This document shows positions 45,487 to 60,665 of a stretch of 64,000 nt of DNA, in pieces. Under the pieces are notes generated by a model that worked only from the letters and a program-made list of their open reading frames with translations, searched no databases and had not been told where the DNA came from. The first letter of the stretch is position 1, and each line of letters starts with the position of its first letter. The DNA lies in IMG/VR virus record IMGVR_UViG_3300029953_000021; one strand, written 5' to 3'. This DNA is from an uncultured virus (IMG/VR IMGVR_UViG_3300029953_000021) (taxonomy: Duplodnaviria > Heunggongvirae > Uroviricota > Caudoviricetes > Schitoviridae). Both the position numbers and the translations under genes were made by a program.

Positions 45487-46184
45487 TGCTCACGCGCGAG
45501 ATGATCGAAAAAGCGCTCCCCACTAATTTGAGGAGTGCCGCTACCCAGGCTTTCACGGACCAGGTGAACAACCTGTCGGCAGATCCCTTGGTGGCTGAGA
45601 GCATCCGCGAGAATTTCATCTCGTATTCGAGGGTGCTCCAAGAGGGGAAATTTAAGACGGAAGACTACCTGCACGCGGTCGCCTACGTGAGCTTCAAGCA
45701 CATGGGCTACTCGAACCAGGATGCCTATTTCCGGACTTTCCCCCAGCGCCACGCCAATCTCTTGGCCAAGGGCACTTCGGGCAAAGACATTGCGGCTTAC
45801 GTCTCAGCGTTCCACCGGGGCAAGCTCGTGAACCTTGTCATGGAGCAGAGCCTCGTTCCGATCTGGATCCTGAACCAGGACGTCTACCAGAAGGCGATCA
45901 ACACCCAGGTCGAGATCATGGAGGACGACACCCTCCCGGCTGTGGCTCGAACGGCTGCTGCGAATTCGGTGCTCACCCATTTGGCGAAGCCAAAAGAGAT
46001 GGCGAACACCATCAATTTCACGGTCGCTGAGAGTTCGGGAATGTCCGAGATGCGGCAGCTCCTCACCGATCTGGCCCGAAATCAGCGGGCAGCCATCGAA
46101 GGGGGAACTTCTCCTCGGGAGATCGCCAGTCAGAAGCTGATCGATGTCACCCCGAATCCTAGTCCCTCACTGGTTCCAAAATAA
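45486..46184 (+). CDS. Putative terminase small subunit (N4 gp69-like)
   Basis: RENFISYSRVLQEGKFKTEDYLHAV, KLVNLVMEQSLVP, AANSVLTHL; directly upstream of TerL. Confidence 0.8.
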   Translation: MLTREMIEKALPTNLRSAATQAFTDQVNNLSADPLVAESIRENFISYSRVLQEGKFKTEDYLHAVAYVSFKHMGYSNQDAYFRTFPQRHANLLAKGTSGKDIAAYVSAFHRGKLVNLVMEQSLVPIWILNQDVYQKAINTQVEIMEDDTLPAVARTAAANSVLTHLAKPKEMANTINFTVAESSGMSEMRQLLTDLARNQRAAIEGGTSPREIASQKLIDVTPNPSPSLVPK

Positions 46185-47773
46185 TGGAACTCCTCAAGCA
46201 AGAACTCGATATTTGGCTCGATGGCGTCAATTATCAGGCTCTGAATTCGTCGGACTATGTGCCGTCTGAGTTCGCCCTCACCTTCATGAATTTCATCAAG
46301 CTCGTGAACGGCGCCGAAGGCGAAAGCCACAAGACTCCCCCTGTTCATTTGAAGATGCTCGACAAGCTCGTCGAGCCCAGCCCCTATGTGGCGAACCTCT
46401 GTTTCCGTGGAGCAGCGAAAACGACGCTGTTCATGGAGTATTTCGTTCTCTTCCTGGCTTTCTATGGTTACCTGCCGAACTTCGGGAAGATCGAGGGGAT
46501 GATCTACGTCTCCGACTCGATGGAGAACGGCGTCAAGAGCGCTCGAAAGAACATCGAGTTTCGCTACGAATCCAGCCCTTTCCTGCAATACTGGATCCCT
46601 GAAGCCCACTTCACGGACAACTACCTCGAGTTTCGAGCCAAAGAGGGCAATCGACTCGGCGTAAAGATGTTCGGCGCCAAGACAGGCCTCCGCGGAACGA
46701 AGATTTTCGGGAAGCGGCCTCCTCTTGCCGTGCTCGATGACCTTGTGAGTGACGACGACTCCAAGTCCAGGGTCCAGATGGAGGCCATCAAGGACACTGT
46801 CTATAAGGGAGTGAACCACGCTCTTGATCCGACCCGCCGCAAAGTCATCTTCAACGGCACTCCCTTCACCAAAGACGACATTCTCATTGAAGCCGTCGAG
46901 TCTGGCGCATGGGATGTGAATGTCTGGCCGGTCTGTGAACGTTTTCCCTGCACTGAGGAGGAGTTCTCCGGGGCTTGGGAGGACCGTTTCACGTTCCAGT
47001 ACGTCAAAGATCAATATGACATGGCGGTCAAGACGGGGAAGCTCGCTGGATTCTACCAGGAACTGATGCTGAGGATCACCTCAGACGAAGAGAGGCTCGT
47101 TCAAGACGACGAGATCAAGTGGTACAACCGATCGAAGCTCCTTGAGATGAAGGGGAACTTCAACTTCTACATCACCACGGACTTCTCGACCTCGAAAAAA
47201 CAGACTGCGGACTTCTCTGTCATCGCTGTGTGGGCCTACAACTCCAACGGACAATGGTTCTGGGTGGATGGAGTCTGTGCTCGGCAGACAATCGACATCA
47301 CCTTCAATGACCTGTTCCGGCTTGTGAGCGAATATCACCCGCAACAGGTGGGCATCGAGGTCACTGGCCAGCAGCAGGCCTACATTAAGCTCCTCCAACA
47401 AGAGATGATGAACCGGAACATCTGGTTTTCGTTCGCTTCGAGTGAAAAATCAGGTGAAGCAGGCATTCGACCGGTCGTGGATAAGCTCTCCAGGTTCAAT
47501 ATGGTCGTTCCTTGGTTCAAATCATCTCGCATGTGGTGGCCCGAGGAGATGAAACTCACCGTGATCATGGGTCATTTCTTGCAGCAGATTAAATTGGCGA
47601 CTAAGAATGGCCTGAAGGGCAAAGATGATTGCCTAGATACGATCTCGATGCTTGGGTATCTGACGCCGTGGAAACCATCCGAAGGAACTGCTTCTTCAAG
47701 TTCTTCTGAGGGACCTTACGACGAAGACACACCGGAAGCGGACACCAATCGCTTATCCTCTTACGTTGTGTGA
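46184..47773 (+). CDS. terL: Terminase large subunit
   Basis: FRGAAKTT, AVLDD, FNGTP, nuclease YITTDF, KDDCLD. Confidence 0.93.
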   Translation: MELLKQELDIWLDGVNYQALNSSDYVPSEFALTFMNFIKLVNGAEGESHKTPPVHLKMLDKLVEPSPYVANLCFRGAAKTTLFMEYFVLFLAFYGYLPNFGKIEGMIYVSDSMENGVKSARKNIEFRYESSPFLQYWIPEAHFTDNYLEFRAKEGNRLGVKMFGAKTGLRGTKIFGKRPPLAVLDDLVSDDDSKSRVQMEAIKDTVYKGVNHALDPTRRKVIFNGTPFTKDDILIEAVESGAWDVNVWPVCERFPCTEEEFSGAWEDRFTFQYVKDQYDMAVKTGKLAGFYQELMLRITSDEERLVQDDEIKWYNRSKLLEMKGNFNFYITTDFSTSKKQTADFSVIAVWAYNSNGQWFWVDGVCARQTIDITFNDLFRLVSEYHPQQVGIEVTGQQQAYIKLLQQEMMNRNIWFSFASSEKSGEAGIRPVVDKLSRFNMVVPWFKSSRMWWPEEMKLTVIMGHFLQQIKLATKNGLKGKDDCLDTISMLGYLTPWKPSEGTASSSSSEGPYDEDTPEADTNRLSSYVV

Positions 47774-47779
47774 GGCATC

Positions 47780-48493
47780 GTGACGCTTGCTGAACTCTTT
47801 GAAATGCTCTCGTATGACGAGTTGCAGAACCTTTCGATCTCGGCCGAGGGAAATGGCGGGATCATTGCGTCTGCTCAGCCCAGGATCGTCAATTACCTCA
47901 ACGAAGCGCTGCTGAAGCTCTATTCCAGGTTCGTTTTGAAGGAAAACGACATTCTCGTGCAAATGTTCGACTCGGTGACGTTTTATCACCTGATTCCACC
48001 GTTTGCCGTGACTTTCGTCCCTGGAGTTGGGCAAGACAATGAGCGTGTCCGATACATCCTGGACCTGCCGGATGAGCCTTTTACGGGCGGAATTATCAAG
48101 ATTTTGTCGGTTTTCAACAGTGAAGACGCTCTTGAGCTGCCTTTGAATGATGAAAGCGAGCGTTTCTCGGTTTTCACGCCCCAAGCACACGTTTTGCAGG
48201 TTCCAAATCCCATCCATGGTCGCGTTCTCAATGTTCGCTACCAGCAACGCCATGATAAAATTCAAGGCGAATTGGATGAAAACATTTGGATTCCCGATGT
48301 ATTGCTTGGGGCGCTGACTTCGTACATCGCCTACAAGGTCTTTAGCCATATAAATACTGTGCCCAGCACGGCTAAGTCCCAAGAGTTCATGGCGACTTAC
48401 GAGGCGTTTTGTACTGAGGTCGTCGATCGGGATCTCGTGAATTCGAGCATCTCCCAGTCAAACCTTCGATTTGGAAGAGGAGGATGGCGATAA
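47780..48493 (+). CDS. Head-tail adaptor (N4 gp67-like)
   Basis: LSYDELQNLSI, NEALLKLYSRF, ELPLND, C-terminal RFGRGGW. Confidence 0.8.
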   Translation: MTLAELFEMLSYDELQNLSISAEGNGGIIASAQPRIVNYLNEALLKLYSRFVLKENDILVQMFDSVTFYHLIPPFAVTFVPGVGQDNERVRYILDLPDEPFTGGIIKILSVFNSEDALELPLNDESERFSVFTPQAHVLQVPNPIHGRVLNVRYQQRHDKIQGELDENIWIPDVLLGALTSYIAYKVFSHINTVPSTAKSQEFMATYEAFCTEVVDRDLVNSSISQSNLRFGRGGWR

Positions 48494-48723
48494 TGGGATG
48501 CCGATGCACGCTGGACTACTACGGCTCGAACTTTGCCCCGCTTGTGGACAAGCAGATCGGCACTGCGTTCTGGACCGTGAAGTGTGTCCACGACAATCTT
48601 GAGAACATCGCCTACGTCGTCACCAATATGGAAGCGATCATCACGCTGGCGACCCAGGTGACGACGCTCCAGACGCAGGTTGCAGCGCTTCAGGCACAGG
48701 TTGCCGCTCTGACGCCTCACTAA
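48493..48723 (+). CDS. Short tail-appendage anchor protein with coiled coil
   Basis: LVDKQIGTAFWTVKCVHDNL resembles the N-terminus of N4-like fibres; heptads QVTTLQTQVAALQAQVAAL. Confidence 0.65.
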   Translation: MGCRCTLDYYGSNFAPLVDKQIGTAFWTVKCVHDNLENIAYVVTNMEAIITLATQVTTLQTQVAALQAQVAALTPH

Positions 48724-48726
48724 GTC

Positions 48727-49080
48727 GTGGGAATCCTCGCCTTCGTTCCGTTTGCGACGTTCCTTCAGCTCAATCCGCTGAAGAACCACTCCAGTCGCGT
48801 GATCATCCCGAACTTGATTTTCGGGTTGAGCGTCGCTGATGCGTTTTTGCAGACGATAAGCGGGACGAGCCTGGATATTTCAGTGTCCGATGGGACGCTT
48901 GAGACCATTTCGAGTGCAACACTCGAGCTGAGCGGCACCACGCTGACTTTCACCTCGCTTGCAGTCGGTAGCACCTTCGACATGACCTTCACGGTGACCA
49001 ATTCCGGCACCGTGGATCTCATCCTTTCTTCACTTACAGCCACTGGTGACTTCTCGGTCACTTACATCGCGAGGGACTGA
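48727..49080 (+). CDS. Protein ending in the N-terminal half of an ASH/choice-of-anchor-D Ig domain
   Basis: TLTFTSLAVGSTFDMTFTVTNSGTVDLILSSLTATGDFSV; start uncertain. Confidence 0.6.
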   Translation: MGILAFVPFATFLQLNPLKNHSSRVIIPNLIFGLSVADAFLQTISGTSLDISVSDGTLETISSATLELSGTTLTFTSLAVGSTFDMTFTVTNSGTVDLILSSLTATGDFSVTYIARD

Positions 49081-49083
49081 ACG

Positions 49084-49500
49084 ATGGCTAATGCAGTTTA
49101 CCCGAGTTTTCGAACCAAGCTCCTCTCGCCGGGCATCAACCTTGCGACGGTGACCATCAAGGCGATCGGCGTCACGGTGACGTCGGGTTCGACGAACTAT
49201 ACTTACAATGCTGCTCATGCGAACCTGTCGGACATCGCTTCGGGCTCCATCTTCGTTCCGGCTGTCGCTCTCAGTTCGCTGGCGGTCGCTTCCCAGGCGC
49301 TCACTGCGGCTTCTGTCGTGTTCCCCTCGGTGGCCATTTCTGGTTCCCTCAAGGTCGATGCGATCATCCTCTACATCGACACGGGCACGCCCAGCACCTC
49401 GACGCTGATCGGTTACATCGACACGGCGACGGGTCTTCCGGCCACTCCCACCGGGCAGAACATCACGCTCAACTGGTCCGGCGCCGTTCTGACGGATTGA
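49084..49500 (+). CDS. Small virion structural protein
   Basis: MANAVYP, AIILYIDTG...LIGYID..GLPATPTGQNITLNW, a pattern seen in phage tail-associated proteins. Confidence 0.7.
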   Translation: MANAVYPSFRTKLLSPGINLATVTIKAIGVTVTSGSTNYTYNAAHANLSDIASGSIFVPAVALSSLAVASQALTAASVVFPSVAISGSLKVDAIILYIDTGTPSTSTLIGYIDTATGLPATPTGQNITLNWSGAVLTD

Positions 49501-49510
49501 GGCTGAGTCA

Positions 49511-51814
49511 ATGACCGCACCCTCTGTCGTCAGTGAGGCTTATTTTCCCTGGACGGGCGCTTATCCGCTCGCTTCATCGAATTCCTATGACTCGACTGGC
49601 ACAGATGGCCTGATCGTTTTCTTCTTCTCGGCTACGGGTACTTCGTTCGTCCCGGTCGCCACTTATGGTGGCGTGACTGGCACGCTTATTGGCCAAAATA
49701 CGGTTCCGGCTCAGACTTCGGCCGGGACGCTCTGGGCTTGGTCGTTCCGCGGATATACGCCAGGTGCGGGCACCCTCCTGATCTCGTCGTCGACGAACTA
49801 TGCTGACTCGGGTTGTTGCTATGTCGTCGGGCTCACCGGCACGCAAAGCTCGATGCTGGGCAATTCCAGCATTGTGGTCTCCGGAACTCCCTCGGGAAGC
49901 GCCTCGATCACGGCCGCTGGAGCCAACAGCACCTTCATTGGACTGGCGGCGAGCTGTCAGGCTCCTGGCGTCACTGGTTCGGGCTCGCCCGCTCCCACGC
50001 TGCTCGAATCCAACACCACAGCCACAAACAACCTGGGCAATGTCTACTCGCAGGCGAGTGTAAGTTCTGGCGCAACGGTTTCGATCTCGTCGAGCGCCGC
50101 TTACAACTACACAGCGGCTGCTGTTGTCGAGGTTTTGGGCGCTTCGAGCGGTCCAAGCATCACTTCTGGCCCCCTTTCGCTCTCGACGAGCTTGGGTGCG
50201 GCAACTGTGCGTGTGCCCCCTGTTGTCACGGCTGCCCCCCTCTCGCTGAGTGTTTCCCTTGGTTCGGAAACTCTCGTCGTCACGCCCATTCCTCCGAGCA
50301 TTTTGGCTGGGCCTCTCGCTCTGACGATCAGCGAAGGTGGCATCGTCGTCACTTTCCCGAATTCGATCACGGCTCCGCCGCTGGTTTTGTCTTTGGGGCT
50401 GGGCGCTGCAAGCGTCGGCTCCCCGGTCTCGATCACGGCTGGTCCCTTGCCGCTGACGATCGCTCTGGGCAGCGAAACTGTCGGGATTGCAGCCACTCTG
50501 ACGACGCCGATCACCATTCCGGCAGGTGGCAGCGTCACGGTCACGGTTCGCTTCACGCCTACGGTTGCAGGATCTCGCACCGGGGCTCTGTCGATCGTCT
50601 CGAATGCGGCTTCCAGCCCGAATACTGTGGCCCTCACAGGCACAGCTGTGGCGAGTGGATCGGCTCCCCTGTCCAGGCTTTCGATCTCCGGAAACCAGTT
50701 CGTCGACTCCAGCGGCAACAAAGTGCGCCTGAAGAGCGTCAATTGGTTCGGTGGCGAGAGCACGAATTACATTCCTCATGGGAACTGGATCCGTCGCTAC
50801 ACCGACATGCTCTCCCAGATGAAGACGATGGGCTTCAACTGCATTCGCTTGGCGTTCTCAGGAGACACTTGCTCTCCCGGTCGGACTCCTCCGGGCACGG
50901 CTTTCGACGCCACGCTGAACCCCGAATTTGTCGGGCAAACCTCGCTTCAGATCTACGATCTGATCATCGCTTGGTGTCAAGCGAACTCGATGTACGTCGT
51001 GCTCGATCATCACCGTTGCTCGGCAGGCGCTGGAACTGACACAGGCATCGTTGCTCCCTATTCCACGACGCAATGGCAGGCAGACTGGGTGCTCTTGGCC
51101 ACTCGATACGCTGCGAACACCTGCGTTGTCGGCGCCGACGTGCATAACGAGCCCTACGTCTACACCTGGCTCGAATGGAAAGCCCTTGTCGAGCCTCTGG
51201 GCAACGCAATCCTCGCTGCTGCTCCTGCCTGGCTCATCTTCGTGGAGGGCGTTGGCGCCTTCACGGGCACGTCCAATGGTGTCACCTACGACAACGACAA
51301 TACCTGGTGGGGTGGCCAGCTCATGGATGTCGCCAACAATCCGATCACGCTCTCAGTGCCGCACAAAGTCGTCTATTCGCCCCATGAGTATGGTCAGAGC
51401 GTCGGTTCGCAGGCTTGGTTGTCGACCGATAGCTCGCCTGTCACTGGTTACCCGGCCGGGATCTACACTGAGATCCACAAGCACTGGGGCTACATCTACG
51501 AGCAGGGCATTGCCCCGATCTGGGTGGGCGAAATGGGCGGCAAATTCGGGCTTGACGGCTCTGGAGGCGCAACTCAGCCGAATGGCGATGTTGAGACGGT
51601 CTGGATGAGCACCGTGATCAAGGTTCTCAACGGTGACTTCGCCGGAACGGGAACCAGTCAGGACACAGCGGGCAACAAGGGCATGTCGGCTTGCTATTGG
51701 GCCTATCCGCCCATCTCCGGTGACACTGGTGGTCTCGTTCAAGACGACTGGACCACGCCTCAGGCACCGAAACTCGCCGTTTTGGCGCCCTTTCTCACGT
51801 TCACGGGGACCTAA
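49511..51814 (+). CDS. Modular protein with C-terminal GH5 endoglucanase (Acidothermus E1-like)
   Basis: VNWFGGES..PHGNW, GFNCIRLAFS, LDHH, DVHNEP (E547), YSPHEYG, PIWVGEMGG (E674), SGDTGGLVQDDW; five ~22-aa repeats and a half ASH domain upstream; no signal peptide. Confidence 0.92.
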   Translation: MTAPSVVSEAYFPWTGAYPLASSNSYDSTGTDGLIVFFFSATGTSFVPVATYGGVTGTLIGQNTVPAQTSAGTLWAWSFRGYTPGAGTLLISSSTNYADSGCCYVVGLTGTQSSMLGNSSIVVSGTPSGSASITAAGANSTFIGLAASCQAPGVTGSGSPAPTLLESNTTATNNLGNVYSQASVSSGATVSISSSAAYNYTAAAVVEVLGASSGPSITSGPLSLSTSLGAATVRVPPVVTAAPLSLSVSLGSETLVVTPIPPSILAGPLALTISEGGIVVTFPNSITAPPLVLSLGLGAASVGSPVSITAGPLPLTIALGSETVGIAATLTTPITIPAGGSVTVTVRFTPTVAGSRTGALSIVSNAASSPNTVALTGTAVASGSAPLSRLSISGNQFVDSSGNKVRLKSVNWFGGESTNYIPHGNWIRRYTDMLSQMKTMGFNCIRLAFSGDTCSPGRTPPGTAFDATLNPEFVGQTSLQIYDLIIAWCQANSMYVVLDHHRCSAGAGTDTGIVAPYSTTQWQADWVLLATRYAANTCVVGADVHNEPYVYTWLEWKALVEPLGNAILAAAPAWLIFVEGVGAFTGTSNGVTYDNDNTWWGGQLMDVANNPITLSVPHKVVYSPHEYGQSVGSQAWLSTDSSPVTGYPAGIYTEIHKHWGYIYEQGIAPIWVGEMGGKFGLDGSGGATQPNGDVETVWMSTVIKVLNGDFAGTGTSQDTAGNKGMSACYWAYPPISGDTGGLVQDDWTTPQAPKLAVLAPFLTFTGT

Positions 51815-52158
51815 TGGCACAAGAGGCCGTTTTCGTTGTCACTCTCTCGCCGGCTTCGTCGTCTCCACAGACGGTGAACTTCACTACTCGCGACGGAACA
51901 GCCTCCGCGGCGAACGGTGACTACACAGCTGTGAGCGGAACTCTGACTTTCGCACCCGGAGTGACCACTCAGCAGGTCATTGTCCCGGTTCGTCTTCCTC
52001 TTCCGACCGGACATGCTTCGGAATTGTTCTACGTCGACGTGAGTTGGCCGACTGGATCGGGAAATACGACTACTCGTGGCACCGGGATCGGCACACTTCC
52101 AGGGGCTGGGCTCACTGTCTTGCCGGTCGTCTCCATCAACAATGTTTCGGTGTCCTGA
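51814..52158 (+). CDS. Stand-alone Calx-beta domain protein
   Basis: FVVTLSPASSSPQTVNFTTRDGTA..GDYTAVSGTLTFAPGVTTQQVIVPV. Confidence 0.85.
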   Translation: MAQEAVFVVTLSPASSSPQTVNFTTRDGTASAANGDYTAVSGTLTFAPGVTTQQVIVPVRLPLPTGHASELFYVDVSWPTGSGNTTTRGTGIGTLPGAGLTVLPVVSINNVSVS

Positions 52159-52161
52159 CCT

Positions 52162-54624
52162 ATGACCATTTCCACGACTCGTAAGATCTCGTTCCTCGTC
52201 ACGCTCAATGAGGCCAGCGCTCAGACTGCGACGGTCGATTACACGACTGTCTCTGGCACTGCGATTGCCGGCACTGACTTCGGAGCTGTCTCGGGGACGC
52301 TGACTTTCGCACCTGGCGTCACTTCGCAGGGGATCGACGTCTATCTGGGCACGGCTTCCACAGGTGGCCTGGTGTTCCAAGTGGCGCTCTCGAACCCGGT
52401 GAATTGCACCCTTGGTTCGGGCGGAGGCCAAGGCACGATCGGGATCTCGGTCGTTCCTCCCTATTTGTCGCGTTTCAACTATATGTACGCGGCCATCAAA
52501 AACACTGCGAATGGGTATTTTGGTCCCCCGACAGGGCCGAAAGCCTTCCAGATGCCTTATCATTGCCCGGAAAAGCTCATCGCCGAGGCTCCCGACTATG
52601 GCCACGAGAGCGTCTCCGAGACGATCTCTTTCTGGGTCGGACTTGAGACTTGGCAGGGTGTGCTGAACAGCGACTGGACTGGCTACACGGCTTGCTGGAA
52701 TTCGATCACCTCGAACTACATCCCGAGTGCTACGAACCAGCCGATCAGCGCCTATTTGCCTGCGGCGCCGGCGACGTATCAGCCCGAAGAGGATTTGCCG
52801 AGTCTCTATCCGGTGACCAGCGTTGTAAGTGCCCCGGTCGGCACTGATGGGCTCTATGCCGAACTTCTGGCTACCTACGGCACCCCCACGATCTTCCTCA
52901 TGCACTGGCTGATCGATGTCGATGGAGCCTTTGGCTTCTACAATGGCGACACATCGACGCTCGGCACCTACATCAACAACTTCCAGCGTGGAATGATGGA
53001 GAGCACGTTCCTCACCATTACCTTCCCCTGCTGGGACGATTGGCACTTTGGCGGCCCCTACGGCTATTTGCCCCTCTATGGGACGGGAACCGAGCTCTAT
53101 CCGAGCGCTCCCTTCGCTTACGGCAAGCAGTGGCGCTACACCTGTGCGCCTGATGCCGAGGGCCGGGCTCTCCAGTGGGCGTTCCGAGCCACGGACATGA
53201 CTGCGAGTGCTCCTCCCGCAGCTGTGACCGCTGTTGAGACAACTGCTCGGAAGATGGGCGACTATCTCCGCTACGCCACGATGGACAAGTATTTCCGGCA
53301 GATCGGCAACAATCAGGTCGGTTCGACGGTCAGCGCTCCCAAAACGGCCTGTCACTACCTCATCTCTTGGTACATGAGCTGGGGCGGCGAGATCCCTGCA
53401 ACGGGTGTTCCGGCATCCTGGTCCTTCCGTATTGGTTCCAGCGAATGCCATTTCGGTTATCAGGCGCCCAATGCGGCCTACCAGATGGCCACGGGTGGCG
53501 GAGGTCACACGCCTTTGTCGCCGACAGCTGCTGGAGACTGGCTGCTCTCGCTCACTCGTCAGCTGGAGATGATCCGTTGGCTTCAGACTGAACAGGGCTT
53601 TATCGCCGGTGGTGTCTCGAATTCGGTCGATGGCCGCTATTTGACGCCTCTGACGGGGCTTTCTGCCCCCAATGAGGTCAATTATCCCCGAGACGGTCGT
53701 GAAGTGGCGACTTTCTATGGGATGACTTACACTTACAGCCCGGTCTGGCATAACCCGCCCTCGAACAACTGGTTCGGCTACCAGGTGTGGGGTATCGGTC
53801 GTGTCGCTGAGCTCTTCCACACGACTGCGGGCAAGACGAGCACCCTTGCTCTCTCGATCCAGACCAATCTTCAAGTTATCCTGGATCGCTGGGTCAATTG
53901 CGTGCTCGCAAATTGCACGGTCGCCTCGGATGGCAGCTCGTTCTCGCTTCCGAGCAACCTCTCGTGGGTGAGCAGCACCCAAGTTGTCGGCGAGACGACC
54001 ACTGTCGCCAATCTCGAAGGCGACTTCGAGTACCTGCCTAGCCTGAATTGGCCCGGTACGTCCCCGAATTATGCGACTTTCTGGAGCGCTGGATCGGTCC
54101 CGAACCCGAATTTGCAGTTCACGATCACCTCGACGGGTGAGGATCTTGGTGTTGCTGGTTCGCTGGCGTCTACACTTCTTCTGTACGCCCAAGCGAAACG
54201 CAATCTGGGTCTCTTCACGACGCCGATCCCCGGCACACCCAATGGCAAGACGCCAAACGATTGTTATCTGCTGGCCAAAGCGCTCTTGGACTGCATCTGG
54301 ACCAATTACAAAGCCTCTATGGGCGTCGAGGTCTCGGAGCCCCGAGCTGACTACGTGCAGTACGGCAATCCGATCTACATCCCATCGATCTTCACGGGCA
54401 CGACGGGCACTGGAGATCCGATCAACGCCGAGTCCACCTTCGTCTCGGTGCGTTCGTTCATGGAAAGCGATCCTGGCTACGCACAGATCGCTGCCTACCA
54501 TGCCAATCCGACGACTGCCCCGGTTCCGGTGTTCACTTATCATCGGTTCTGGGCTCAGACGGAATACGCCATGGGTTGCGCCGTCATGCACAAGTATTTC
54601 TCTGACTTAGCCGAGGCTGCATAG
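52162..54624 (+). CDS. Calx-beta + GH48 cellulase
   Basis: PYH..EKLIAEAPDYGHESVSE (E142/E153), MHWLIDVD, NNFQRG, QWRYTCAPDAEGRA (D331), KMGDYLRY..DKYF, HYLISWY, HFGYQ, PPSNNWFGYQ, YHRFWAQ. Confidence 0.93.
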   Translation: MTISTTRKISFLVTLNEASAQTATVDYTTVSGTAIAGTDFGAVSGTLTFAPGVTSQGIDVYLGTASTGGLVFQVALSNPVNCTLGSGGGQGTIGISVVPPYLSRFNYMYAAIKNTANGYFGPPTGPKAFQMPYHCPEKLIAEAPDYGHESVSETISFWVGLETWQGVLNSDWTGYTACWNSITSNYIPSATNQPISAYLPAAPATYQPEEDLPSLYPVTSVVSAPVGTDGLYAELLATYGTPTIFLMHWLIDVDGAFGFYNGDTSTLGTYINNFQRGMMESTFLTITFPCWDDWHFGGPYGYLPLYGTGTELYPSAPFAYGKQWRYTCAPDAEGRALQWAFRATDMTASAPPAAVTAVETTARKMGDYLRYATMDKYFRQIGNNQVGSTVSAPKTACHYLISWYMSWGGEIPATGVPASWSFRIGSSECHFGYQAPNAAYQMATGGGGHTPLSPTAAGDWLLSLTRQLEMIRWLQTEQGFIAGGVSNSVDGRYLTPLTGLSAPNEVNYPRDGREVATFYGMTYTYSPVWHNPPSNNWFGYQVWGIGRVAELFHTTAGKTSTLALSIQTNLQVILDRWVNCVLANCTVASDGSSFSLPSNLSWVSSTQVVGETTTVANLEGDFEYLPSLNWPGTSPNYATFWSAGSVPNPNLQFTITSTGEDLGVAGSLASTLLLYAQAKRNLGLFTTPIPGTPNGKTPNDCYLLAKALLDCIWTNYKASMGVEVSEPRADYVQYGNPIYIPSIFTGTTGTGDPINAESTFVSVRSFMESDPGYAQIAAYHANPTTAPVPVFTYHRFWAQTEYAMGCAVMHKYFSDLAEAA

Positions 54625-54631: not shown

Positions 54632-54675
54632 TAGGAGGAAAGCCTTGTGTTTTCCTCCTACTTACGTTTGCTTTA
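54632..54675 (+). repeat. Left inverted repeat of the tail-fibre cassette
   Basis: TAGGAGGAA-N11-TTCCTCCTA-CTTACGTTTGCTTTA. Confidence 0.75.
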
Positions 54676-54730: not shown

Positions 54731-55096
54731 TTGGCCGACTTGACCAAAATTGAATTGAAGGCCGGCAGCACGTTCAGTTATGCGGGCACAGTATCCAATC
54801 TGGACGCCTCAACTGCGTGGAGTGCTCTCTCGACGCTGCGAAATAAGACTACGAAGGCTGAGATTACGCCTGGAATCATTGTCACCTTGGCGAAAGCCTC
54901 GGATTTCTCTTCGACCCAGAATTGGGTGATCACGCTGTTTGCGCCTTCGGTCTCAACGACTGGATGGCTTGCTCAGCTGCTCAGCGCCAAGGGTGAAGCC
55001 GAGTTTGACATCAAGTTCTTCAATACGGCGGCTCCTGATCCCGTCATCAAGTCGGATACGGTCGATCTGAAGATCTGTCCGGCAGTCAGTCAGTGA
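54731..55096 (+). CDS. Baseplate/tail-associated protein
   Basis: IELKAGSTF...AEFDIKF...IKSDTVDLKI, BppU-like pattern. Confidence 0.6.
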   Translation: MADLTKIELKAGSTFSYAGTVSNLDASTAWSALSTLRNKTTKAEITPGIIVTLAKASDFSSTQNWVITLFAPSVSTTGWLAQLLSAKGEAEFDIKFFNTAAPDPVIKSDTVDLKICPAVSQ

Positions 55097-55590
55097 CGCT
55101 CTCGCTTCAGCCAACATCTACAGCAATTGGGGTCACTCTTGCTGTGCAAGATGTGGTTCCTCCTGTAGTATTGCTCAAGTTGGTGTCGTCTCCGAGCATT
55201 GCTCTCACCGAGCAAGATGCTTCTACACCCTTTGCATTGACTCTTGGGACAGGTGATACGCCCCCCAGTGTCAGTCTGTCTCCACAGGACACGAAGACTC
55301 CTGTCCCCATAACCTTCGCTTCTGATGCGTCTACGGTCTCACTAGCAGTTCAAGCTCTAATGAGAGGCCCCCAGGGTGCCTCCGGTGGATTATCGAACGT
55401 AGATGAGTTCGTCGCGACAGTAGGTGGTACCCAGACTAGGACCTATGAGACGGCTCCGTCGGCTTCAACGATGGTGTTTATCAACGGTCTACGACAGTCA
55501 GGTTCATCGTTCTCGATAACGAATACCTCAATCACGTTGCCAAGTACCCTGAATATCGAAATCGGTGACCTGATTCAGGTCGAGTATTAA
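55093..55590 (+). CDS. Tail-associated protein
   Basis: RGPQGASG then VFINGLRQ...GDLIQVEY module, also present at the C-terminus of the next gene. Confidence 0.65.
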   Translation: MTLSLQPTSTAIGVTLAVQDVVPPVVLLKLVSSPSIALTEQDASTPFALTLGTGDTPPSVSLSPQDTKTPVPITFASDASTVSLAVQALMRGPQGASGGLSNVDEFVATVGGTQTRTYETAPSASTMVFINGLRQSGSSFSITNTSITLPSTLNIEIGDLIQVEY

Positions 55591-55604
55591 AGGATCAATC
55601 TCAA

Positions 55605-56876
55605 ATGGCTCAGACCCAGATCAATGGCGCTACTCAGATCAAGGCGGGGTCAGTCCCGCTGACTGCCCTCGTTTCTGGATATTCGATCCCGACTGCCAAT
55701 TTGGCCCAGGGCGGGCTTTTCATCCAGAGCGGCGGCTCTGTGGCCATGACTGCGGCCCTCAATATGGGCTCGAACCAGATCAACTCCGTCGCGAACCCCG
55801 TTGTGGCGACCGATGCTGCGAACAAGGCCTATGTCGATGGCTTGGTGAACGGCTTCACGCTGCATGGCGCCAAAGTCGTCTCTGTCGCCAACCAGGGCAC
55901 GCTTTCGGGTCTTCTGACGATCGATGGTCACGTCCTCGTCGCTGGCGATGTGGTTCTCCTCACGGCTCAGACCACGGCTGCGCAGAACGGTCCTTGGGTG
56001 GCTGCGTCTACCGGTTGGACTCGTCCGACCTGGTGGGCTTCGGCTGCGGCGCTTCCCGAGGGCAACTACTTCCTGCTCGATCCCGATGGCACGACCTACA
56101 AGAACACGAAATGGTTCGTGACCACGGCTGGCACGATCACCGTCGATACGACCGCAATTGCCTTTACCCAGGATCAGTCGGGTTCGTCCTATGTCGCCGG
56201 CACCGGTCTTGGCCTCGCTGGTTCGACCTTCTCGGTCACTTACGGCACGACTTCTGGCACGGCGGCTCAGGGTAACGACACCCGCATCACCGGCGCTCTC
56301 CAGACCTCTGCCCTCGGCGCCAGTGTTCAGACGGCTCTTGGCGTGGCTGTGGGCTCCGCTGGTTCGGTTGTACTCAACGGCGGCGCTCTCGGCACTCCTT
56401 CCAGCGCCACGCTTACCAATGCTTCGGGCTTGCCTATCTCGACGGGTGTCTCGGGTCTCGGTGCAGGCGTTGCCACGGCTCTCGCAGTCGCTATCGGCAC
56501 GGGCGCTGGTCTCGCCCAGCTTTCGGGCGGCTTCCTCACGGCGGGTGATTTCCCGGCTCTGACGGGTGACGTGACCACGGTTGCCGGCGCTCTTGCCACG
56601 ACGGTCAATCACACGGCGGGCTCTGGTTTCGCGAAATACACCGACTTTGTGAATGCCGAGACGCCTTCGGGCACTGTGAATGGCTCCAATGCGACGTTCA
56701 CCCTCGCCAATACGCCCACCACTGGGTTCGGCAGCGTTAACACGCTCTCGCTCTACCTCAATGGCGTGCTGCTCGAAGCTGGTTCGGGCAACGATTACAC
56801 GCTCTCGGGCAGCACGATCACGGCTCTTTTGATCCCGCAAACCGGCGACAAGTTGCGCGCTTACTACATGAAGTGA
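55605..56876 (+). CDS. Tail fibre-like protein
   Basis: PVVATDAANKAYVD, TIDGHVLVAGDVVLLTAQT..QNGPW, ETPSGTVNGSNATFTL, LYLNGVL..GNDYT. Confidence 0.8.
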   Translation: MAQTQINGATQIKAGSVPLTALVSGYSIPTANLAQGGLFIQSGGSVAMTAALNMGSNQINSVANPVVATDAANKAYVDGLVNGFTLHGAKVVSVANQGTLSGLLTIDGHVLVAGDVVLLTAQTTAAQNGPWVAASTGWTRPTWWASAAALPEGNYFLLDPDGTTYKNTKWFVTTAGTITVDTTAIAFTQDQSGSSYVAGTGLGLAGSTFSVTYGTTSGTAAQGNDTRITGALQTSALGASVQTALGVAVGSAGSVVLNGGALGTPSSATLTNASGLPISTGVSGLGAGVATALAVAIGTGAGLAQLSGGFLTAGDFPALTGDVTTVAGALATTVNHTAGSGFAKYTDFVNAETPSGTVNGSNATFTLANTPTTGFGSVNTLSLYLNGVLLEAGSGNDYTLSGSTITALLIPQTGDKLRAYYMK

Positions 56877-56888
56877 GGTTGAGTTCGA

Positions 56889-57203
56889 ATGGCACAGATT
56901 GATACCCGACATGAGGCGCTGCTCCGCTTGGTGCAGCGTCTCCAGAAGGAATACGGCGAGACTTCGATAGCGAATTTCGCTCTCGATGAGCAGCTCAACC
57001 AGGCCGAGGCTCATATTCAGCATCTTCATGCGCTGGACGAAGAGAAGAACTCGACGATTACTGCCCTGTTCGCTCGCATCAAGCAGGCCGACGAAGACAA
57101 CGAATCCCTGCGCAAGCAGCTCGATCCCAAGCGGGGTGATCGCTTCGCTGGCCCTCGCAAGAAAGCAGCTGTTCGTGGCGCAGACCAAGATCAATCCGTC
57201 TGA
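56889..57203 (+). CDS. Coiled-coil protein (possible fibre chaperone)
   Basis: Charged heptad pattern, GAGG RBS. Confidence 0.65.
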   Translation: MAQIDTRHEALLRLVQRLQKEYGETSIANFALDEQLNQAEAHIQHLHALDEEKNSTITALFARIKQADEDNESLRKQLDPKRGDRFAGPRKKAAVRGADQDQSV

Positions 57204-58143
57204 TCAGATCCCGAGCGGATCTCTCACTCGGGCGATGCTGAATACGACTAACGCCGGGTCTGCGGTCATCGCTAAGGTGATCGCAGGCTGGGGTGTTGGG
57301 CTGACTTCGACGGGAGCCGATAGTGGCACAGGCGATGTCACTCTCGGTCTGACCGGAGATGGCCTGGGTTCTCGGAACCATCTCCGAAATCCGACTTTCG
57401 TCATCAATCAGCGGGCTGTTTCCGGCACAGTTACACTTGCCGCAGGTGTCTATGGCCATGATGGCGTAAAAGCAGGCGCTTCAGGCTGCACTTATACGTT
57501 TTCGGCCTCTGGCCTCGACACGACGCTGACGATTACGGCAGGTTCGCTGATTCTGCCCATCGAGTCGGTGTTTATCGAAGGTGGGTCTTACACACTCTCG
57601 CAAGCGGGCACGGCTCATGCCCGTGTCTGGCAGGGCACTGGCACTACCGGCACAGGCTCCTATGTCGCTGCGCCTTTCACGGTCACAGGGCTCACCGTCA
57701 ACACTCAAACGAACGTCGAGTTCACGACTGGAACTGTTCTACAACCGCAGTTCGAGGCTGGCTCTACGGCTACGAACTTCGAGCGTCGGATCATCACCGA
57801 TGAATGGTCGCTCGCGCTGCGATACTATCTGTCGACCTATGCCGCAGGCGTGAAGCCCGGCACGGCTGGCGCTTCGCCCGCTTTTGCGGTCTTTGCTCAG
57901 ACTGCAATCAGCTATCTTGTTGTGTTCTCGGGGTTCTTTCCAATGCCGATGCACGCAAATCCGACCATTGTTATCTATTCGCCCAACAGCGGAGCTTCCG
58001 GGAATGTCTATGCAAACAATGCCGGCTCCGACCAGGCTGCTTATGTCTCTGGTTCCTCACGTTTTGGTCTCACGGTAAGTTTAAACGGTTCCAGCCTCAC
58101 GGGTGGTTTCCAGATAAACTTCACCGCCAGTTCGGATATCTAA
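57175..58143 (+). CDS. Tail fibre-like protein 2
   Basis: GTG start gives MAQTKINPSDQI, paralogous to MAQTQINGATQI; RNHLRNPTFVINQR, QFEAGSTATNFERR...LALRYY. Confidence 0.75.
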   Translation: MAQTKINPSDQIPSGSLTRAMLNTTNAGSAVIAKVIAGWGVGLTSTGADSGTGDVTLGLTGDGLGSRNHLRNPTFVINQRAVSGTVTLAAGVYGHDGVKAGASGCTYTFSASGLDTTLTITAGSLILPIESVFIEGGSYTLSQAGTAHARVWQGTGTTGTGSYVAAPFTVTGLTVNTQTNVEFTTGTVLQPQFEAGSTATNFERRIITDEWSLALRYYLSTYAAGVKPGTAGASPAFAVFAQTAISYLVVFSGFFPMPMHANPTIVIYSPNSGASGNVYANNAGSDQAAYVSGSSRFGLTVSLNGSSLTGGFQINFTASSDI

Positions 58144-58144
58144 A

Positions 58145-58537
58145 GTGTCTTATACCCTAATGGCCAACTCAACGTCTGTTCGACGCGACTCCGACAATGC
58201 AATGATCCCCAATGATCCGGCCAATATCGACTGGGTGGCATATCAGACCTGGCTGGGGGCGGGAAATACACCCTCGCTAGCACCTTCAGCACCTGAACAA
58301 GTTCCGTCTTGTCAGCTTTGGCAATTGCAAGCTGTGTTGACTGCGGCGCAATGGGTTCTAGTGCAGAATGCGGTCGCAACGCTGAACAATCCTGCCGTCA
58401 GCGCCTTCTTTGCCCATGGTACGAACGTCATCCCGGCCAATTCGACAACGCTCGGGTCACTGGCGACAGCAATCGGCATCGATCCCTCGACACTGCCTAC
58501 CTTGATCGCAGAAGCTGCTGCTATTGCTATCCCTTAA
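58145..58537 (+). CDS. Tail fibre assembly chaperone-like protein
   Basis: IPNDPANIDWVAYQTWLGAGNTP. Confidence 0.7.
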   Translation: MSYTLMANSTSVRRDSDNAMIPNDPANIDWVAYQTWLGAGNTPSLAPSAPEQVPSCQLWQLQAVLTAAQWVLVQNAVATLNNPAVSAFFAHGTNVIPANSTTLGSLATAIGIDPSTLPTLIAEAAAIAIP

Positions 58538-58579
58538 AGTAAACTCTAAGTAGGAGGAAGCAACAATAGCTTCCTCCTA
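58535..58579 (-). repeat. Right inverted repeat of the tail-fibre cassette
   Basis: Minus strand TAGGAGGAA-N11-TTCCTCCTA-CTTAGAGTTTACTTTA. Confidence 0.75.
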
Positions 58580-58663
58580 GTTGTATATAATGTCTATAAT
58601 AGACTACTGCATGTACACTGAGCCAGGTATAAGCCAATTGGCGCTCAGAGAAGGTACTGCACG

Positions 58664-59962
58664 ATGTCTGAAGACACTTGGACCCTCGGAGTCCTTTCCC
58701 CTCCGGCAAGCGATTTGGTCGTTGTTCCGAGCGATATTTCGCTCATTGAAGCGATTGCGGGGGTCGACTCGGCAGGCATCACTGTCGTCAACGTAAATCA
58801 GCTGCTTGGAGCACCCATTGGCCCGGCCAATGCTGTTCCGATGTATGACGCCTATTTGTCGCCTGTGACGACGGCTTGGACGAGCGCCACGGCCCTGAAT
58901 ACGGCCTTTGTGGTCAATACTTCGGGCTACGACACGGTGATCTTCACGGCTGTCGGCGGTGCGACCGTTACAGGCGGCGCCATCACTTTTGAGGTTTATG
59001 ACGGCGCGAACTGGCTGCCCCTGAAGGCGGCTCGAACCGACTCGTATCTTACGGACTCGGTGTTCACCCTCTCGGCGAACTTCTCGAAAGCCTGGCAGCT
59101 CTCGGTTGCTGGCTTCCCTCAGGCCCGAGCCCGTCTGTCTACGGCTCTCACCGGAGCTGGAAGTCTTGGGTTGACGATGGCTGTTTCGTCGGCTCCGGAC
59201 ACTTCGCTTGTGACCGTGGGTTTCGACCCGTCTTCTCCTTTGCCGGCTGGCACGAATGCTCTCGGCACTGTGATCGCTGAGTTGAGCGCTCCTCAAGCTA
59301 CCGCGGATCAAGCTTCGGCTGCGATCACGGCGACCACCACGAGCGCGGCAGTCACGCCCACCTTCGGCGCCGAATATGAAGTCAACCAGGTCGTCACCGC
59401 TGTGACCGGCACTTCTCCGACGATGGATGTTGTTGTCGAAGAGTCCGAAGACGGCACGAACTGGTTTGACGTCTACCACTTCTCCCGAATCACGGCGGCT
59501 GGCGCTTATCGTTCGCCGAAGCTGATCATGAAGGGGACTCGACTTCGTGTTGTCGAGACGATCGGCGGCACCACGCCCTCGTTTACCCGGTCCAGGAACC
59601 GTCTTCAGGGCTCCTCGGGGATGGCTCAGTTCACTCGACGTATCTTCGATCGAGCGATCTCGCTCACCACGCTCTCGGCGACGACCACCACCACTTCCGG
59701 CAATGCCCTGAATGTTCAGGACTGCCGCAATCTCTCGCTGACCATCAACATTGGCGCTGCGACGACTGCTCCGGCTTTGCAGCTCCAGGCTTCAGAGGAT
59801 GGTGGCGCTTCCTGGTTCCTCATTGGTTCGCCTTTGCTCGCAGTCGCCTCGTCCACCGTCTCCATGACGCTCACCAACGTGAATTACGAGCTGGTCCGAG
59901 CCATCGTCACCACGGCTGGAGCTACCGTCACTCCCGGTTACGTCGCCATCAAGGGCTTCTGA
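58664..59962 (+). CDS. Putative virion structural protein with three beta-sandwich repeats
   Basis: Thr/Ala-rich; repeated EVYDGANW, ESEDGTNW, ASEDGGASW. Confidence 0.65.
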   Translation: MSEDTWTLGVLSPPASDLVVVPSDISLIEAIAGVDSAGITVVNVNQLLGAPIGPANAVPMYDAYLSPVTTAWTSATALNTAFVVNTSGYDTVIFTAVGGATVTGGAITFEVYDGANWLPLKAARTDSYLTDSVFTLSANFSKAWQLSVAGFPQARARLSTALTGAGSLGLTMAVSSAPDTSLVTVGFDPSSPLPAGTNALGTVIAELSAPQATADQASAAITATTTSAAVTPTFGAEYEVNQVVTAVTGTSPTMDVVVEESEDGTNWFDVYHFSRITAAGAYRSPKLIMKGTRLRVVETIGGTTPSFTRSRNRLQGSSGMAQFTRRIFDRAISLTTLSATTTTTSGNALNVQDCRNLSLTINIGAATTAPALQLQASEDGGASWFLIGSPLLAVASSTVSMTLTNVNYELVRAIVTTAGATVTPGYVAIKGF

Positions 59963-59963: not shown

Positions 59964-60665
59964 ATGGCTGATCTCGCCACGATTCTGCCGGTCACCCTCG
60001 CTTTTGAGGGTGGCTGGGCCGACAACCCGAAAGATCCGGGTGGAGCGACGATGAAGGGGATCACCTTCGCGACGTTCAAGCAGTTCTTCCCCGGAAGGAC
60101 GGTCACCCAGCTTCGCGACATCTCGGATGCAGACGTTCAGCACATCTACGATGTCGGGTACTTCACGCCCATTTCAGGCTCTACGCTCACGCAAGGCGTG
60201 AGCATGGTGGCGTTTGACTACGGCGTCAATTCGGGCGTCAGTCGAGCCAAGAATGTCCTTGCCAGCACGAGCGCTCTCTCGGGAGTTCCTCGGGTCACGG
60301 CGATTTCGAACGCTCGCCTCTCGTTTCTGCACGCTCTCAGCACCTGGAAGTATTTCGGCACTGACTGGGGTCGAAGGGTCGGTGAAGCTGAAGCCCAAGG
60401 CATCAAGTGGGAGACGATCTCTCCTGCGGCTGCTTCGGTCACGATGAAGGCGTCTGCCACCACGGTTCGCAAGACTGCAACTGCCCATACGACTGTTGCG
60501 GTGGCTTCCACGGCCACGGTGCCCACGAGTTTCGCTGTTCCCACTCAGATTTCAACGACCACCGAGCTGATCATCTTCGGTGTCGTCATCGCTGTGGCGG
60601 CTGTCTTCGGGATCCTCGCTTTCCACAATTCCCAACGTGCCTCTGCTCTGGAGAAGGCTTCATGA
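59964..60665 (+). CDS. GH108-family endolysin with C-terminal TM
   Basis: FEGGWADNPKDPGGATMKGIT, FDYGVNSG, hydrophobic C-terminus. Confidence 0.88.
   Translation: MADLATILPVTLAFEGGWADNPKDPGGATMKGITFATFKQFFPGRTVTQLRDISDADVQHIYDVGYFTPISGSTLTQGVSMVAFDYGVNSGVSRAKNVLASTSALSGVPRVTAISNARLSFLHALSTWKYFGTDWGRRVGEAEAQGIKWETISPAAASVTMKASATTVRKTATAHTTVAVASTATVPTSFAVPTQISTTTELIIFGVVIAVAAVFGILAFHNSQRASALEKAS

Follow-up and report, generated by a model that had tools for sequence, protein, structure and literature searches.

What is a pair of cellulase-type enzymes doing in the tail locus of a bacteriophage? The question is raised by a stretch of 64,000 nucleotides (nt), one strand, from the uncultured virus IMGVR_UViG_3300029953_000021 (Schitoviridae); this whole stretch is referred to below as the window. 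Its cellulase block comprises six plus-strand open reading frames (ORFs) between the terminase/adaptor genes and the lysis/portal genes, and includes a protein of glycoside hydrolase family 5 (GH5) and one of glycoside hydrolase family 48 (GH48). GH48 typifies cellulolytic bacteria, in which the secreted or cellulosomal GH48 enzymes work together with endoglucanases. We consider it probable that the locus serves an N4-like peat phage as its module for host recognition and depolymerisation, that it is a diverged form of the tail cassette of Erwinia phage S6, and that host cellulose is its target. For one detail of this reading, the docking of the GH48 protein through a Calx-beta domain, our confidence is somewhat lower.

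The genes on which the argument rests are the following.

46184..47773, plus strand: terminase large subunit (terL), start of the late block (phrog_38, E 3.9e-97; 62% identity to S6 gp098)
47780..48493, plus strand: virion structural or head-tail adaptor-like protein, 237 amino acids (aa) (phrog_2125, E 1.7e-68; 42% identity to S6 gp097)
48484..48723, plus strand: 79-aa protein with a gp096-like N terminus and a heptad-like coiled-coil tail
48727..49080, plus strand: 117-aa protein, Ig-like (HYDIN/ASH-type) half domain (PF22544, E 2e-4, 21.9 bits)
49084..49500, plus strand: 138-aa phrog_644 protein of the 'minor tail subunit' type (E 4.6e-21)
49511..51814, plus strand: 767-aa GH5 fibre-enzyme (PF00150, E 4e-38)
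51814..52158, plus strand: 114-aa stand-alone Calx-beta protein (PF03160, E 6e-11)
52162..54624, plus strand: 820-aa Calx-beta and GH48 protein (PF02011, E 5.9e-188)

Structure of the two enzymes

The GH48 protein is composed of a Calx-beta domain (residues 1–95; Pfam match 11–62) and a catalytic module (approximately residues 100–820) that matches PF02011 with 626.7 bits, against a cut-off of 25. GH48 chains in the Protein Data Bank (PDB) are matched at E values of 1e-111 to 1.8e-129 (best 4fus). An AlphaFold2 model built from a 40-sequence alignment reaches a predicted local distance difference test (pLDDT) score of 88.8, and its (alpha/alpha)6 barrel spans the whole catalytic module; Foldseek places it on the GH48 structures of C. 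bescii, C. cellulolyticum and H. chejuensis (4l0g, 1fce and 4fus) with a template modelling (TM) score, normalized to the target, of 0.92–0.94 and a root mean square deviation of 2.4–3.1 Å, the three named entries being given at 2.4–2.7 Å. The N-terminal domain superposes on Calx-beta domains with a TM-score of approximately 0.7, and the N terminus of the protein is itself the first Calx-beta strand (model strands 3–14). E142, E153 and D331, the last in an APDA motif, are invariant in 40 aligned Calx-GH48 proteins and align to identical residues in 4fus and 6d5d. In Cel48F numbering the two glutamates are presumably E44 and E55; an E44Q mutant and a D224N mutant of the T. fusca enzyme appear in the titles of PDB entries. 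As judged from sequence and model, the GH48 protein is a predicted cellulase with a complete fold and a complete set of catalytic residues.

The module and the acid/base residues are shared with Cel48F, CelS, the GH48 module of C. bescii CelA and H. chejuensis Cel48, at 36–37% identity. In contrast to such secreted or cellulosomal enzymes, the phage proteins form a clade apart (Shimodaira–Hasegawa-like approximate likelihood ratio test (SH-aLRT) support of 100), carry a Calx-beta head rather than a carbohydrate-binding module (CBM) or dockerin, are encoded in a tail locus and, by inspection, have no signal peptide.

The GH5 protein begins with an all-beta N-terminal domain (residues 1–212), followed by approximately five 20-residue 'PLSLS' repeats (213–325), an Ig-like domain (approximately 326–380) and the GH5 domain (approximately 390–767). 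Residues 399–701 match PF00150 with 131.9 bits, against a cut-off of 23.5, and Ig-like/ASH matches at residues 323–379 lie under the cut-off. The acid/base E547 (NEP motif) and the nucleophile E674 (WVGEMG, GExG motif) are invariant in 17 aligned GH5 proteins. The nearest PDB chain is that of CelE2 (8fc0, E 1.8e-83), followed by Acidothermus E1, Xanthomonas EngXCA and Pyrococcus horikoshii EGPh; these nearest solved chains are all endo-beta-1,4-glucanases. From the E1 and EGPh matches the domain would be expected to fall in CAZy subfamily GH5_1.

These results bear out what an earlier note, made from the letters of the DNA, had read at this locus: a GH5 enzyme with catalytic residues at NEP E547 and WVGEMG E674, and a full GH48 with E142, E153 and D331 in APDA. 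Its statement that neither enzyme has a signal peptide holds by inspection of the N termini, although no dedicated predictor was applied; the GH5 protein has no basic residue in its first eight positions. Neither protein has a Pfam match to a CBM or a dockerin, so that none of the marks of a secreted or cellulosomal cellulase (signal peptide, CBM or dockerin) is present. Nor is the architecture that of a beta-helix tailspike, the catalytic domains being a member of the GH5 TIM-barrel family and a GH48 (alpha/alpha)6 barrel. The tight packing and translational coupling within the late operon that the note described are also found. The adaptor and 79-aa genes overlap by 10 nt, gaps of 3, 3 and 10 nt lead up to the GH5 gene, the GH5 stop and the start of the 114-aa gene overlap in TAATG, and 3 nt separate the 114-aa and GH48 genes; the gap 3' of GH48 is 106 nt.

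Precedent in Erwinia phage S6

The closest known system is that of S6 (vB_EamP-S6, Waedenswilvirus), with which the window phage shares an N4-like backbone, the domain architectures and the catalytic residues. The S6 genes run in the order gp098 (terL), gp097 (virion protein), gp096, gp095 ('hydrolase', GH5), gp094 ('glycoside hydrolase', GH48), holin, endolysin and portal. The earlier note had proposed a search of phages for GH48 next to terL and portal genes, and the order terL-gp097-gp096-GH5-GH48-lysis-portal of S6 is such a case. Identity between the window and S6 proteins is 62% for terL, 42% for gp097, 43% for gp095 and 52% for gp094. The two loci differ in that the window has three small ORFs (79, 117 and 138 aa) at the position of gp096, its GH5 protein has an N-terminal half unrelated to that of gp095, and a stand-alone Calx-beta gene precedes GH48. 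After GH48 the window continues with a 5-kb block of fibre genes, whereas S6, with one small gene between, goes to its lysis genes. The habitat of the window phage is peat. The primary paper on S6 is reportedly that of Knecht et al. 2022.

According to the commentary PMC9544554, infection by S6 needs host cellulose, which is the first receptor, and is inhibited by Congo red. There, gp095 is experimentally shown to degrade carboxymethyl-cellulose, and gp094 (Calx-beta and GH48) is described as predicted only. The residues named in that text are E155 (proton donor) and D331 for gp094 and E570 and E689 for gp095. In our alignments, E153 of the window protein falls on S6 E155 and D331 on the APDA aspartate, which is residue 334 in the RefSeq gp094; E547 and E674 correspond to S6 E570 and E689.

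That no phage precedent exists, as the earlier note seems to have assumed, is incorrect, because the GH5–GH48 pair of N4-like S6 is already in print (PMC9544554). Its narrower remark, that no characterised phage GH48 was known to it, stands in so far as the same text calls gp094 'predicted', but not for the phage GH5–GH48 pair itself, which that text already describes. Elsewhere in the literature, a 2026 study by random-barcode transposon sequencing (RB-TnSeq) states that a subset of Klebsiella phages requires five cellulose-synthesis genes, and S6 appears by citation only in a paper on the compost 'Theomophage'.

Breadth and mobility of the cassette

A tblastn search against 50,697 phage records located the GH48 protein in 17 of them, all from Erwinia phages, at 49–52% identity and 99% coverage. 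These are the N4-like S6, phiEaP8, Kuerle, Pastis and Fifi phages and the Hena1/pEp_SNUABM_01 group with genomes of approximately 148 kb. The GH5 protein matched 34 records, including those of the GH48 phages, in which GH5 is the neighbouring gene, and also PEp14, Pavtok, Stean, Serratia phage Parlo, Klebsiella phages SopranoGao, LASTA and SJM3 and Pseudomonas phage Skulduggery.

In a large protein search, 8000 candidates were scored and 432 proteins reached E <= 1e-20; the best 120 (as 90%-identity clusters) were inspected. A Calx-beta and GH48 architecture of approximately 800 aa was present in 109 of these 120 clusters, and 25 of the 120 are carried on contigs of 60–78 kb. The few matches that bear a name, besides those of Erwinia phages, come from Rhodoblastus acidophilus (62%), Novosphingobium, a Pseudomonadota metagenome-assembled genome (MAG), Roseomonas and Segnochrobactraceae. 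Profile-guided scans added 15 loci from IMG/VR and six from species-representative genomes; 19 loci were compared with the window proteins, and two of these (L007 and L021) are the same DNA, leaving 18 distinct loci. In 17 of the 19 (16 of the 18 distinct), GH48 is preceded by a GH5 catalytic domain. The exceptions are L026, a classical Bacillota GH48 with 27% identity and without Calx-beta, and L025, on a MAG contig, where the match begins at query residue 129 and the 1,978 nt upstream contain no GH5 match. The window itself has the S6-type arrangement, with GH5 directly upstream of Calx-GH48 in the tail locus.

The backbones that carry the pair are diverse. N4-like carriers are the window, L013 (which is S6), L014, L017, L019 and L020; podophages of the PEp14/GP4 type are L009, L016, L018 and L021 (Gp77 domain, phrog_511, phrog_8003 and phrog_9667); L011 and L012 have genomes of approximately 148 kb; L015/L006 are of a 53-kb type; and L024, in Azotobacter, is a long-tailed element that includes a tape-measure gene. 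In quick maximum-likelihood trees (LG+G4, SH-aLRT support only), Calx-GH48 forms one clade (100), apart from CBM2-GH48, Big-GH48 and Bacillota sequences. The N4-like phages are dispersed across this clade: the window groups with the Rhodoblastus element (99), L019 with L016, and L014 with L009. The GH5 tree again joins the window with Rhodoblastus (93) and S6 with Hena1 (98) and recovers the Azotobacter group, but is otherwise discordant. L020 is the closest backbone relative of the window phage (terL 80%), yet its GH48 is only 43% identical. The scatter of the N4-like phages and the mismatch of L020 point to exchange of the cassette between phage families, mostly as a unit. On these sequence comparisons, GH5 with Calx-GH48 is a mobile cassette present in at least four or five phage backbones.

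Natural variants of the pair occur. P0050 (1326 aa) is a single-chain fusion of GH5, GH48 and Ig domains without Calx-beta. P0099 (1397 aa) joins Calx-beta and GH48 to a GDSL/SGNH esterase and is possibly suited to acetylated cellulose. At L009 (2601-5564), a Gp77 domain, an Ig domain and GH5 are followed by a C-terminal alginate lyase (PF08787, E 8e-27), making a two-substrate depolymerase on one chain.

Such additions bear on the substrate. Some GH48 members are chitinases, and the esterase of P0099 and the alginate lyase of L009 hint at modified or mixed matrices; the GH48 protein, and perhaps the GH5 protein, could act on another substrate (modified cellulose, either acetylated or phosphoethanolamine-substituted, another beta-glucan, or chitin) or serve mainly in binding, in which case the two proteins would be no endo/exo team working on plain cellulose. 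The commentary PMC9544554 stresses that the form of the substrate and the endo or exo mode of action are undetermined. We nevertheless regard such alternatives as improbable, given a catalytic acid and base invariant in 40 family members, a GH48 fold that superposes on processive cellulases at TM-scores of 0.92–0.94, a GH5 domain nearest to characterised endo-1,4-beta-glucanases, and the co-occurrence of BcsB in carrier genomes described below.

Probable location in the tail and the Calx-beta head

Several relatives point to a tail location of the cassette proteins. In L009, L016, L018 and L021, and in cultured PEp14, the GH5 protein or the preceding ORF opens with PF23148, the 'Podophage GP4 fiber-tail adaptor protein gp77'. 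The Calx-beta head is likewise found on other appendage proteins: a collagen-type tail fibre of L021 (618 aa), proteins with fibre repeats of L018 (716 aa) and L016 (654 aa), a protein of L018 (1051 aa) that matches the phrog_2871 tail protein at E 1e-132, and, in PEp14, an annotated exopolysaccharide (EPS) depolymerase (residues 10–82) and a 'tail protein' (residues 5–81). A head common to successive appendage proteins is what would be expected of a docking module, and its recurrence suggests that the Calx-beta domain serves as one.

PEp14 (Pavtokvirus), Pavtok, Stean, Klebsiella LASTA and SJM3 and Serratia Parlo resemble the window in having GH5 in the tail locus, followed by appendage proteins with N-terminal Calx-beta domains. 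PEp14 differs in that its GH5 carries the Gp77 adaptor domain and its Calx-beta domains sit on the EPS depolymerase and 'tail protein'; no GH48 match was found in records of the PEp14 type.

The GH5 protein of the window matches phrog_18474 and the 'tail protein' family phrog_5717, and its Hena1 homologue is named 'baseplate protein' in RefSeq. The all-beta model of its N-terminal domain (residues 1–212; pLDDT of approximately 80) resembles, in Foldseek searches of BFVD, mycobacteriophage 'minor tail proteins' and proteins of Sinorhizobium phage phiN3 and Roseobacter phage RD-1410Ws-07, over approximately 210–240 aligned columns with target-normalized TM-scores of 0.6–0.8. The number of 'PLSLS' repeats differs among four homologues. 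L020 encodes the N-terminal domain with its repeats (641 aa) and the GH5 domain (475 aa) in two genes, a split consistent with a fibre shaft whose enzymatic tip can be exchanged. Matches of residues 213–400 to beta-solenoids, with Z-scores of up to 10.4, were not used, the model having a pLDDT below 50 in this region.

From the domain architecture we infer that both enzymes are virion appendages. A complex prediction for GH5 residues 300–767 with the GH48 Calx-beta domain (residues 1–100) scored 0.00, 'no answer', and counts neither way. N4-like phage G7C has branched tail appendages in which gp66 carries gp63.1, and its likeness to the window, offered here as an idea only, is that of an anchored appendage protein with a second enzyme docked by an N-terminal domain; the enzyme there is an esterase, whereas those here are cellulases, and docking here is a proposal.

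The two proteins might instead be soluble late enzymes, released at lysis to loosen a cellulose biofilm for the escape and spread of progeny. Neither has the architecture of a trimeric beta-helix tailspike, their genes lie near the lysis cassette (59964-61225), and the texts consulted gave no proteomic sign of virion association. We think this unlikely. Long tail-type N-terminal parts are present on both proteins (the 'minor tail' fold on one, and on the other a Calx-beta head common to fibres and an annotated depolymerase), GH5 is fused to a fibre-tail adaptor domain in other backbones, and S6 needs cellulose for infection itself, as the commentary PMC9544554 states.

Small genes of the block

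The 79-aa protein resembles S6 gp096 at residues 10–49 (45% over 40 residues) in direct comparison only; tblastn of the phage collection gave no match to it at E 1e-3. In each of the five other N4-like loci (L013, L014, L017, L019 and L020), the gene directly following that of the adaptor encodes a homologue. With its heptad-like end and weak Pfam matches to trimerisation and zipper families, it is likely, judged from sequence, to be a virion-proximal anchor stub. The 117-aa protein matches the Ig-like family PF22544 with 21.9 bits, under the cut-off of 25.5, and has homologues in L020 (a separate 123-aa ORF), L017, L015 and L023; the Ig-like matches that are sub-threshold in the window rise above the cut-off in homologues (93 bits in L016, for example). 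phrog_644, the family of the 138-aa protein, matches 158 phage records, some of them annotated as minor tail protein or minor tail subunit; the protein is 81% identical in L020, and in L015 and L023 its gene stands before that of GH5. A separate Calx-beta ORF of the 114-aa type lies directly before GH48 in L020 (116 aa, 63.5%), L021/L007 (52%) and L023 (44%). The recurrence of counterparts across relatives indicates that the small genes (79, 138 and 114 aa) are real. An hhalign comparison of the 138-aa family with Gp77 regions gave a probability of approximately 0.1%, and the family was rejected as a Gp77 adaptor.

The best phage counterparts of the 138-aa gene and the GH5 N-terminal domain (49084-50146) are mycobacteriophage 'minor tail' genes, which suggests that the gene and the 212-residue domain represent an ancient two-gene tail unit common to very distant phages.

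One reading frame holds the 79-, 117- and 138-aa ORFs, split by single stops (TAA and TGA), and the 114-aa ORF is in frame with GH48 across a TGA and one codon. Stop read-through was considered and rejected: L020 has the pieces as separate ORFs, L021 and L023 have the stand-alone Calx gene in a different frame, the longer 941-aa relative P0095 gains its length at the C terminus and not by a second Calx-beta domain, and four sequencing runs (described below) have no variant letters at the stop sites. Because the pieces are separate ORFs in relatives and the stops are invariant, we read them as separate genes, for which read-through is unneeded.

Source of the cellulose

The earlier note left two sources for the cellulose, bacterial and plant. 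Four bacterial assemblies carry the cassette (G002–G005), those of Rhodoblastus acidophilus DSM 142, Azorhizophilus paspali, Azotobacter beijerinckii DSM 378 and a Segnochrobactraceae bacterium, and in all four the cellulose-synthase component BcsB is found above its Pfam cut-off. The base rate is 15 of 101 genomes in the order of G002 and 8 of 101 in the order of G005, counts that include the carriers themselves (G002 and G004 in the first sample, G005 in the second). Among the BcsB loci (L027–L030), those of Azotobacter and Azorhizophilus fall within frames that stay open for 1481 and 1460 aa, a length suggestive of a synthase of the fused BcsA-BcsB type.

Because BcsB is present in all four carriers, host cellulose is better supported than the plant cell wall, and of the two sources the plant alternative is the one that has lost ground; the evidence favouring host-made cellulose over plant debris is suggestive. 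The enzymes could also be auxiliary metabolic genes, or serve attachment to plant debris, with peat plant cellulose degraded or bound independently of any cellulose of the host, either to nourish the host or to let the phage wait on particles. All 24 sequencing runs that hold the region are labelled peat metagenome, and GH48 is typical of cellulolytic bacteria. This alternative seems to us very improbable: the genes lie in a tail-appendage locus and not among metabolic genes, both enzymes are without CBM, dockerin or (by inspection, no predictor having been run) signal peptide, the cultured relatives infect non-cellulolytic Erwinia, and all four cassette-bearing bacteria have BcsB.

Proposed mechanism

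If host cellulose is the target, the parts can be assembled as follows. Infection would require cellulose made by the Bcs machinery of the host, and the GH5 domain, a predicted endo-beta-1,4-glucanase that forms the tip of a fibre-like protein, would cut beta-1,4-glucan, as has been shown in S6. The GH5 protein would attach to the virion by its 'minor tail'-type N-terminal domain, together with the 79-, 117- and 138-aa proteins, and the GH48 protein, whose fold stands behind a Calx-beta domain and whose catalytic residues, like those of GH5, are kept, would plug in by that Calx-beta head. The endo-acting GH5 would open chains within the cellulose matrix of the host, and GH48 would then shorten them from their ends. 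In this way the particle would bind the matrix and digest a path to the outer membrane; there, a second, surface receptor might be engaged by the fibre proteins encoded downstream (54731–59962). The endo/exo synergy, the identity of the substrate and activity in the window phage are put forward here by analogy. A role in cutting through bacterial cellulose to reach the host, as the earlier note had suggested, is thus supported; it is also the model published for S6 gp095 and gp094, as given in the commentary PMC9544554.

A number of observations weigh against this picture. No biochemical or structural work on a phage GH48 was found in the literature, and nothing relevant on the virion proteomics of Erwinia phage cellulases. 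For the N-terminal region of the GH5 protein, the large protein search returned only three homologues, and its own cluster, at 100% identity, is one of these. The window proteins have no match to the Gp77 fibre-tail adaptor (PF23148) even at E 1, and the family of the GH5 N-terminal domain was rejected as such an adaptor by hhalign (probability of approximately 0.1%). GH48 and GH5 are monomeric enzyme folds, unlike the trimeric tailspikes, and the Calx-beta domain may instead be a cellulase accessory domain. The four BcsB-positive carriers stem from at most three independent lineages, and the base rates with which they are compared are without phylogenetic control. Peat is rich in plant cellulose, which leaves room for a substrate not made by the host. 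As for the host, no tRNA genes that could point to one were found in the window, and the portal protein, at approximately 60%, is equidistant to those of phages of several host genera.

Integrity of the block

Two other contigs in IMG/VR are 100% identical to the window across 41820–64000, and exact copies of the GH48 protein are recorded by the large protein search on 16 contigs, the longest of 74,887 bases. The 24 runs in which the region is present all date from 2019, possibly from one campaign, and no RNA run is among the runs listed as holding it. Contigs were checked in four further runs, those not flagged as possible sources of the window. They are at least 99% alike, cover all 30 bins with one variant letter only, and span 47000–48973, 49490–53224, 51398–53003 and 52777–56000 without joints or loose ends.

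That the block was joined in error during assembly, or is bacterial DNA recently inserted, could be suspected because the nearest IMG/VR record (G001, locus L002), otherwise 100% identical, ends inside the GH5 gene at window position 51537, and because the GC content is slightly raised (0.59–0.60) over 50–54 kb. Since two other IMG/VR contigs have identical sequence, all junctions are bridged without joints by contigs of four further runs, and cultured phages show the same gene order, we give this explanation almost no credence; a chimeric host insertion, which the earlier note had asked to be checked by read mapping, was not found. That G001 has no GH48 match follows from its end at 51537, and it is hence uninformative on this point. 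Many run contigs break within 48.3–51.9 kb; these breaks and the end of G001 may reflect low coverage or strain variation in a polymorphic region.

Genome context

The remaining features of the window are these.

2..9190, plus strand: virion RNA polymerase, 5'-open, 3062 aa (phrog_2206, 2300.6 bits)
54632..54660, plus strand: hairpin just past the GH48 stop; its stem sequence occurs again at 58551–58579
54731..59962, plus strand: second fibre-like gene block of 121, 165, 423, 385, 130 and 432 aa, given as context
59964..60665, plus strand: endolysin (GH108; PF05838, E 7.8e-20; phrog_315)
61553..63814, plus strand: portal protein (phrog_1216, E 6e-242; approximately 61% identity to N4-like portals)

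The giant virion RNA polymerase, together with the N4-type terL and portal, identifies the window phage, by sequence, as N4-like (Schitoviridae). Its portal is approximately 61% identical to its counterparts in N4-like phages that infect Erwinia, Pseudomonas, Rhizobium and E. coli; the phage accordingly has no close cultured relative. The naming of the adaptor is based on phrog_2125 ('virion structural protein') and a weak, sub-threshold Pfam match to SU10_adaptor. In the early/middle block, on the minus strand, rIIA-like (833 aa, phrog_2979) and rIIB-like (552 aa, phrog_2886) genes occupy 20753–24881.

In the second fibre block, the 423-aa protein matches phrog_2647/11518, the 385-aa protein a phrog_4492 tail-fibre C terminus, and the 432-aa protein, weakly, an F5/8-type C domain; an Atlas search with one of the downstream fibres returned viral clusters only (CBM_4_9 / Mtd_N). 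These genes are probably a second set of receptor-binding proteins.

The hairpins at 54632–54660 and 58551–58579 share the stem AGGAGGAA...TTCCTCCT, for which two matches were found against 0 expected (100 shuffles). Each lies directly 3' of a stop codon, that of GH48 and that of the 130-aa ORF, with no T-run after it. Together they split the late block into three units, and they may be terminators or RNA-stabilising elements. In a promoter scan, 6.8 sigma-70-like sites were expected and two were found, each of them on the minus strand; the scan is uninformative.

Significance

Among the polymers of the biofilm matrix in plant-associated and soil bacteria, cellulose is a major one, usually viewed as a shield. 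The work on S6, as presented in the commentary PMC9544554, describes a phage that turns this shield into a receptor. The same enzyme pair, strongly diverged, is now seen in an uncultured peat phage, and nothing established is overturned. What may go beyond print is the breadth and mobility of the cassette, the common Calx-beta head, the adaptor fusion on GH5, the natural GH5–GH48 fusion and the co-occurrence with BcsB. The cassette supplies a simple genomic marker by which cellulose-dependent phages might be predicted, its non-secreted GH48 and GH5 enzymes form a set for biofilm dispersal or enzyme studies, and the proposed Calx-beta plug offers a concrete hypothesis for how phages swap their depolymerases.

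A more far-reaching version, which we put forward only tentatively and think doubtful as it stands, is that GH5 is a universal base and Calx-beta a universal plug, by which phages of at least four or five unrelated backbones mount interchangeable enzymes on one appendage as a virion-borne, cellulosome-like multi-enzyme organ, and that the cassette predicts cellulose-dependent infection. If so, GH48, EPS depolymerase, fibres and a fused alginate lyase or esterase would be swappable parts; host cellulose would be a widespread primary receptor of phages in soil, peat and plant-associated Proteobacteria; and the processive GH48 would pull or guide the virus along a fibril instead of serving nutrition.

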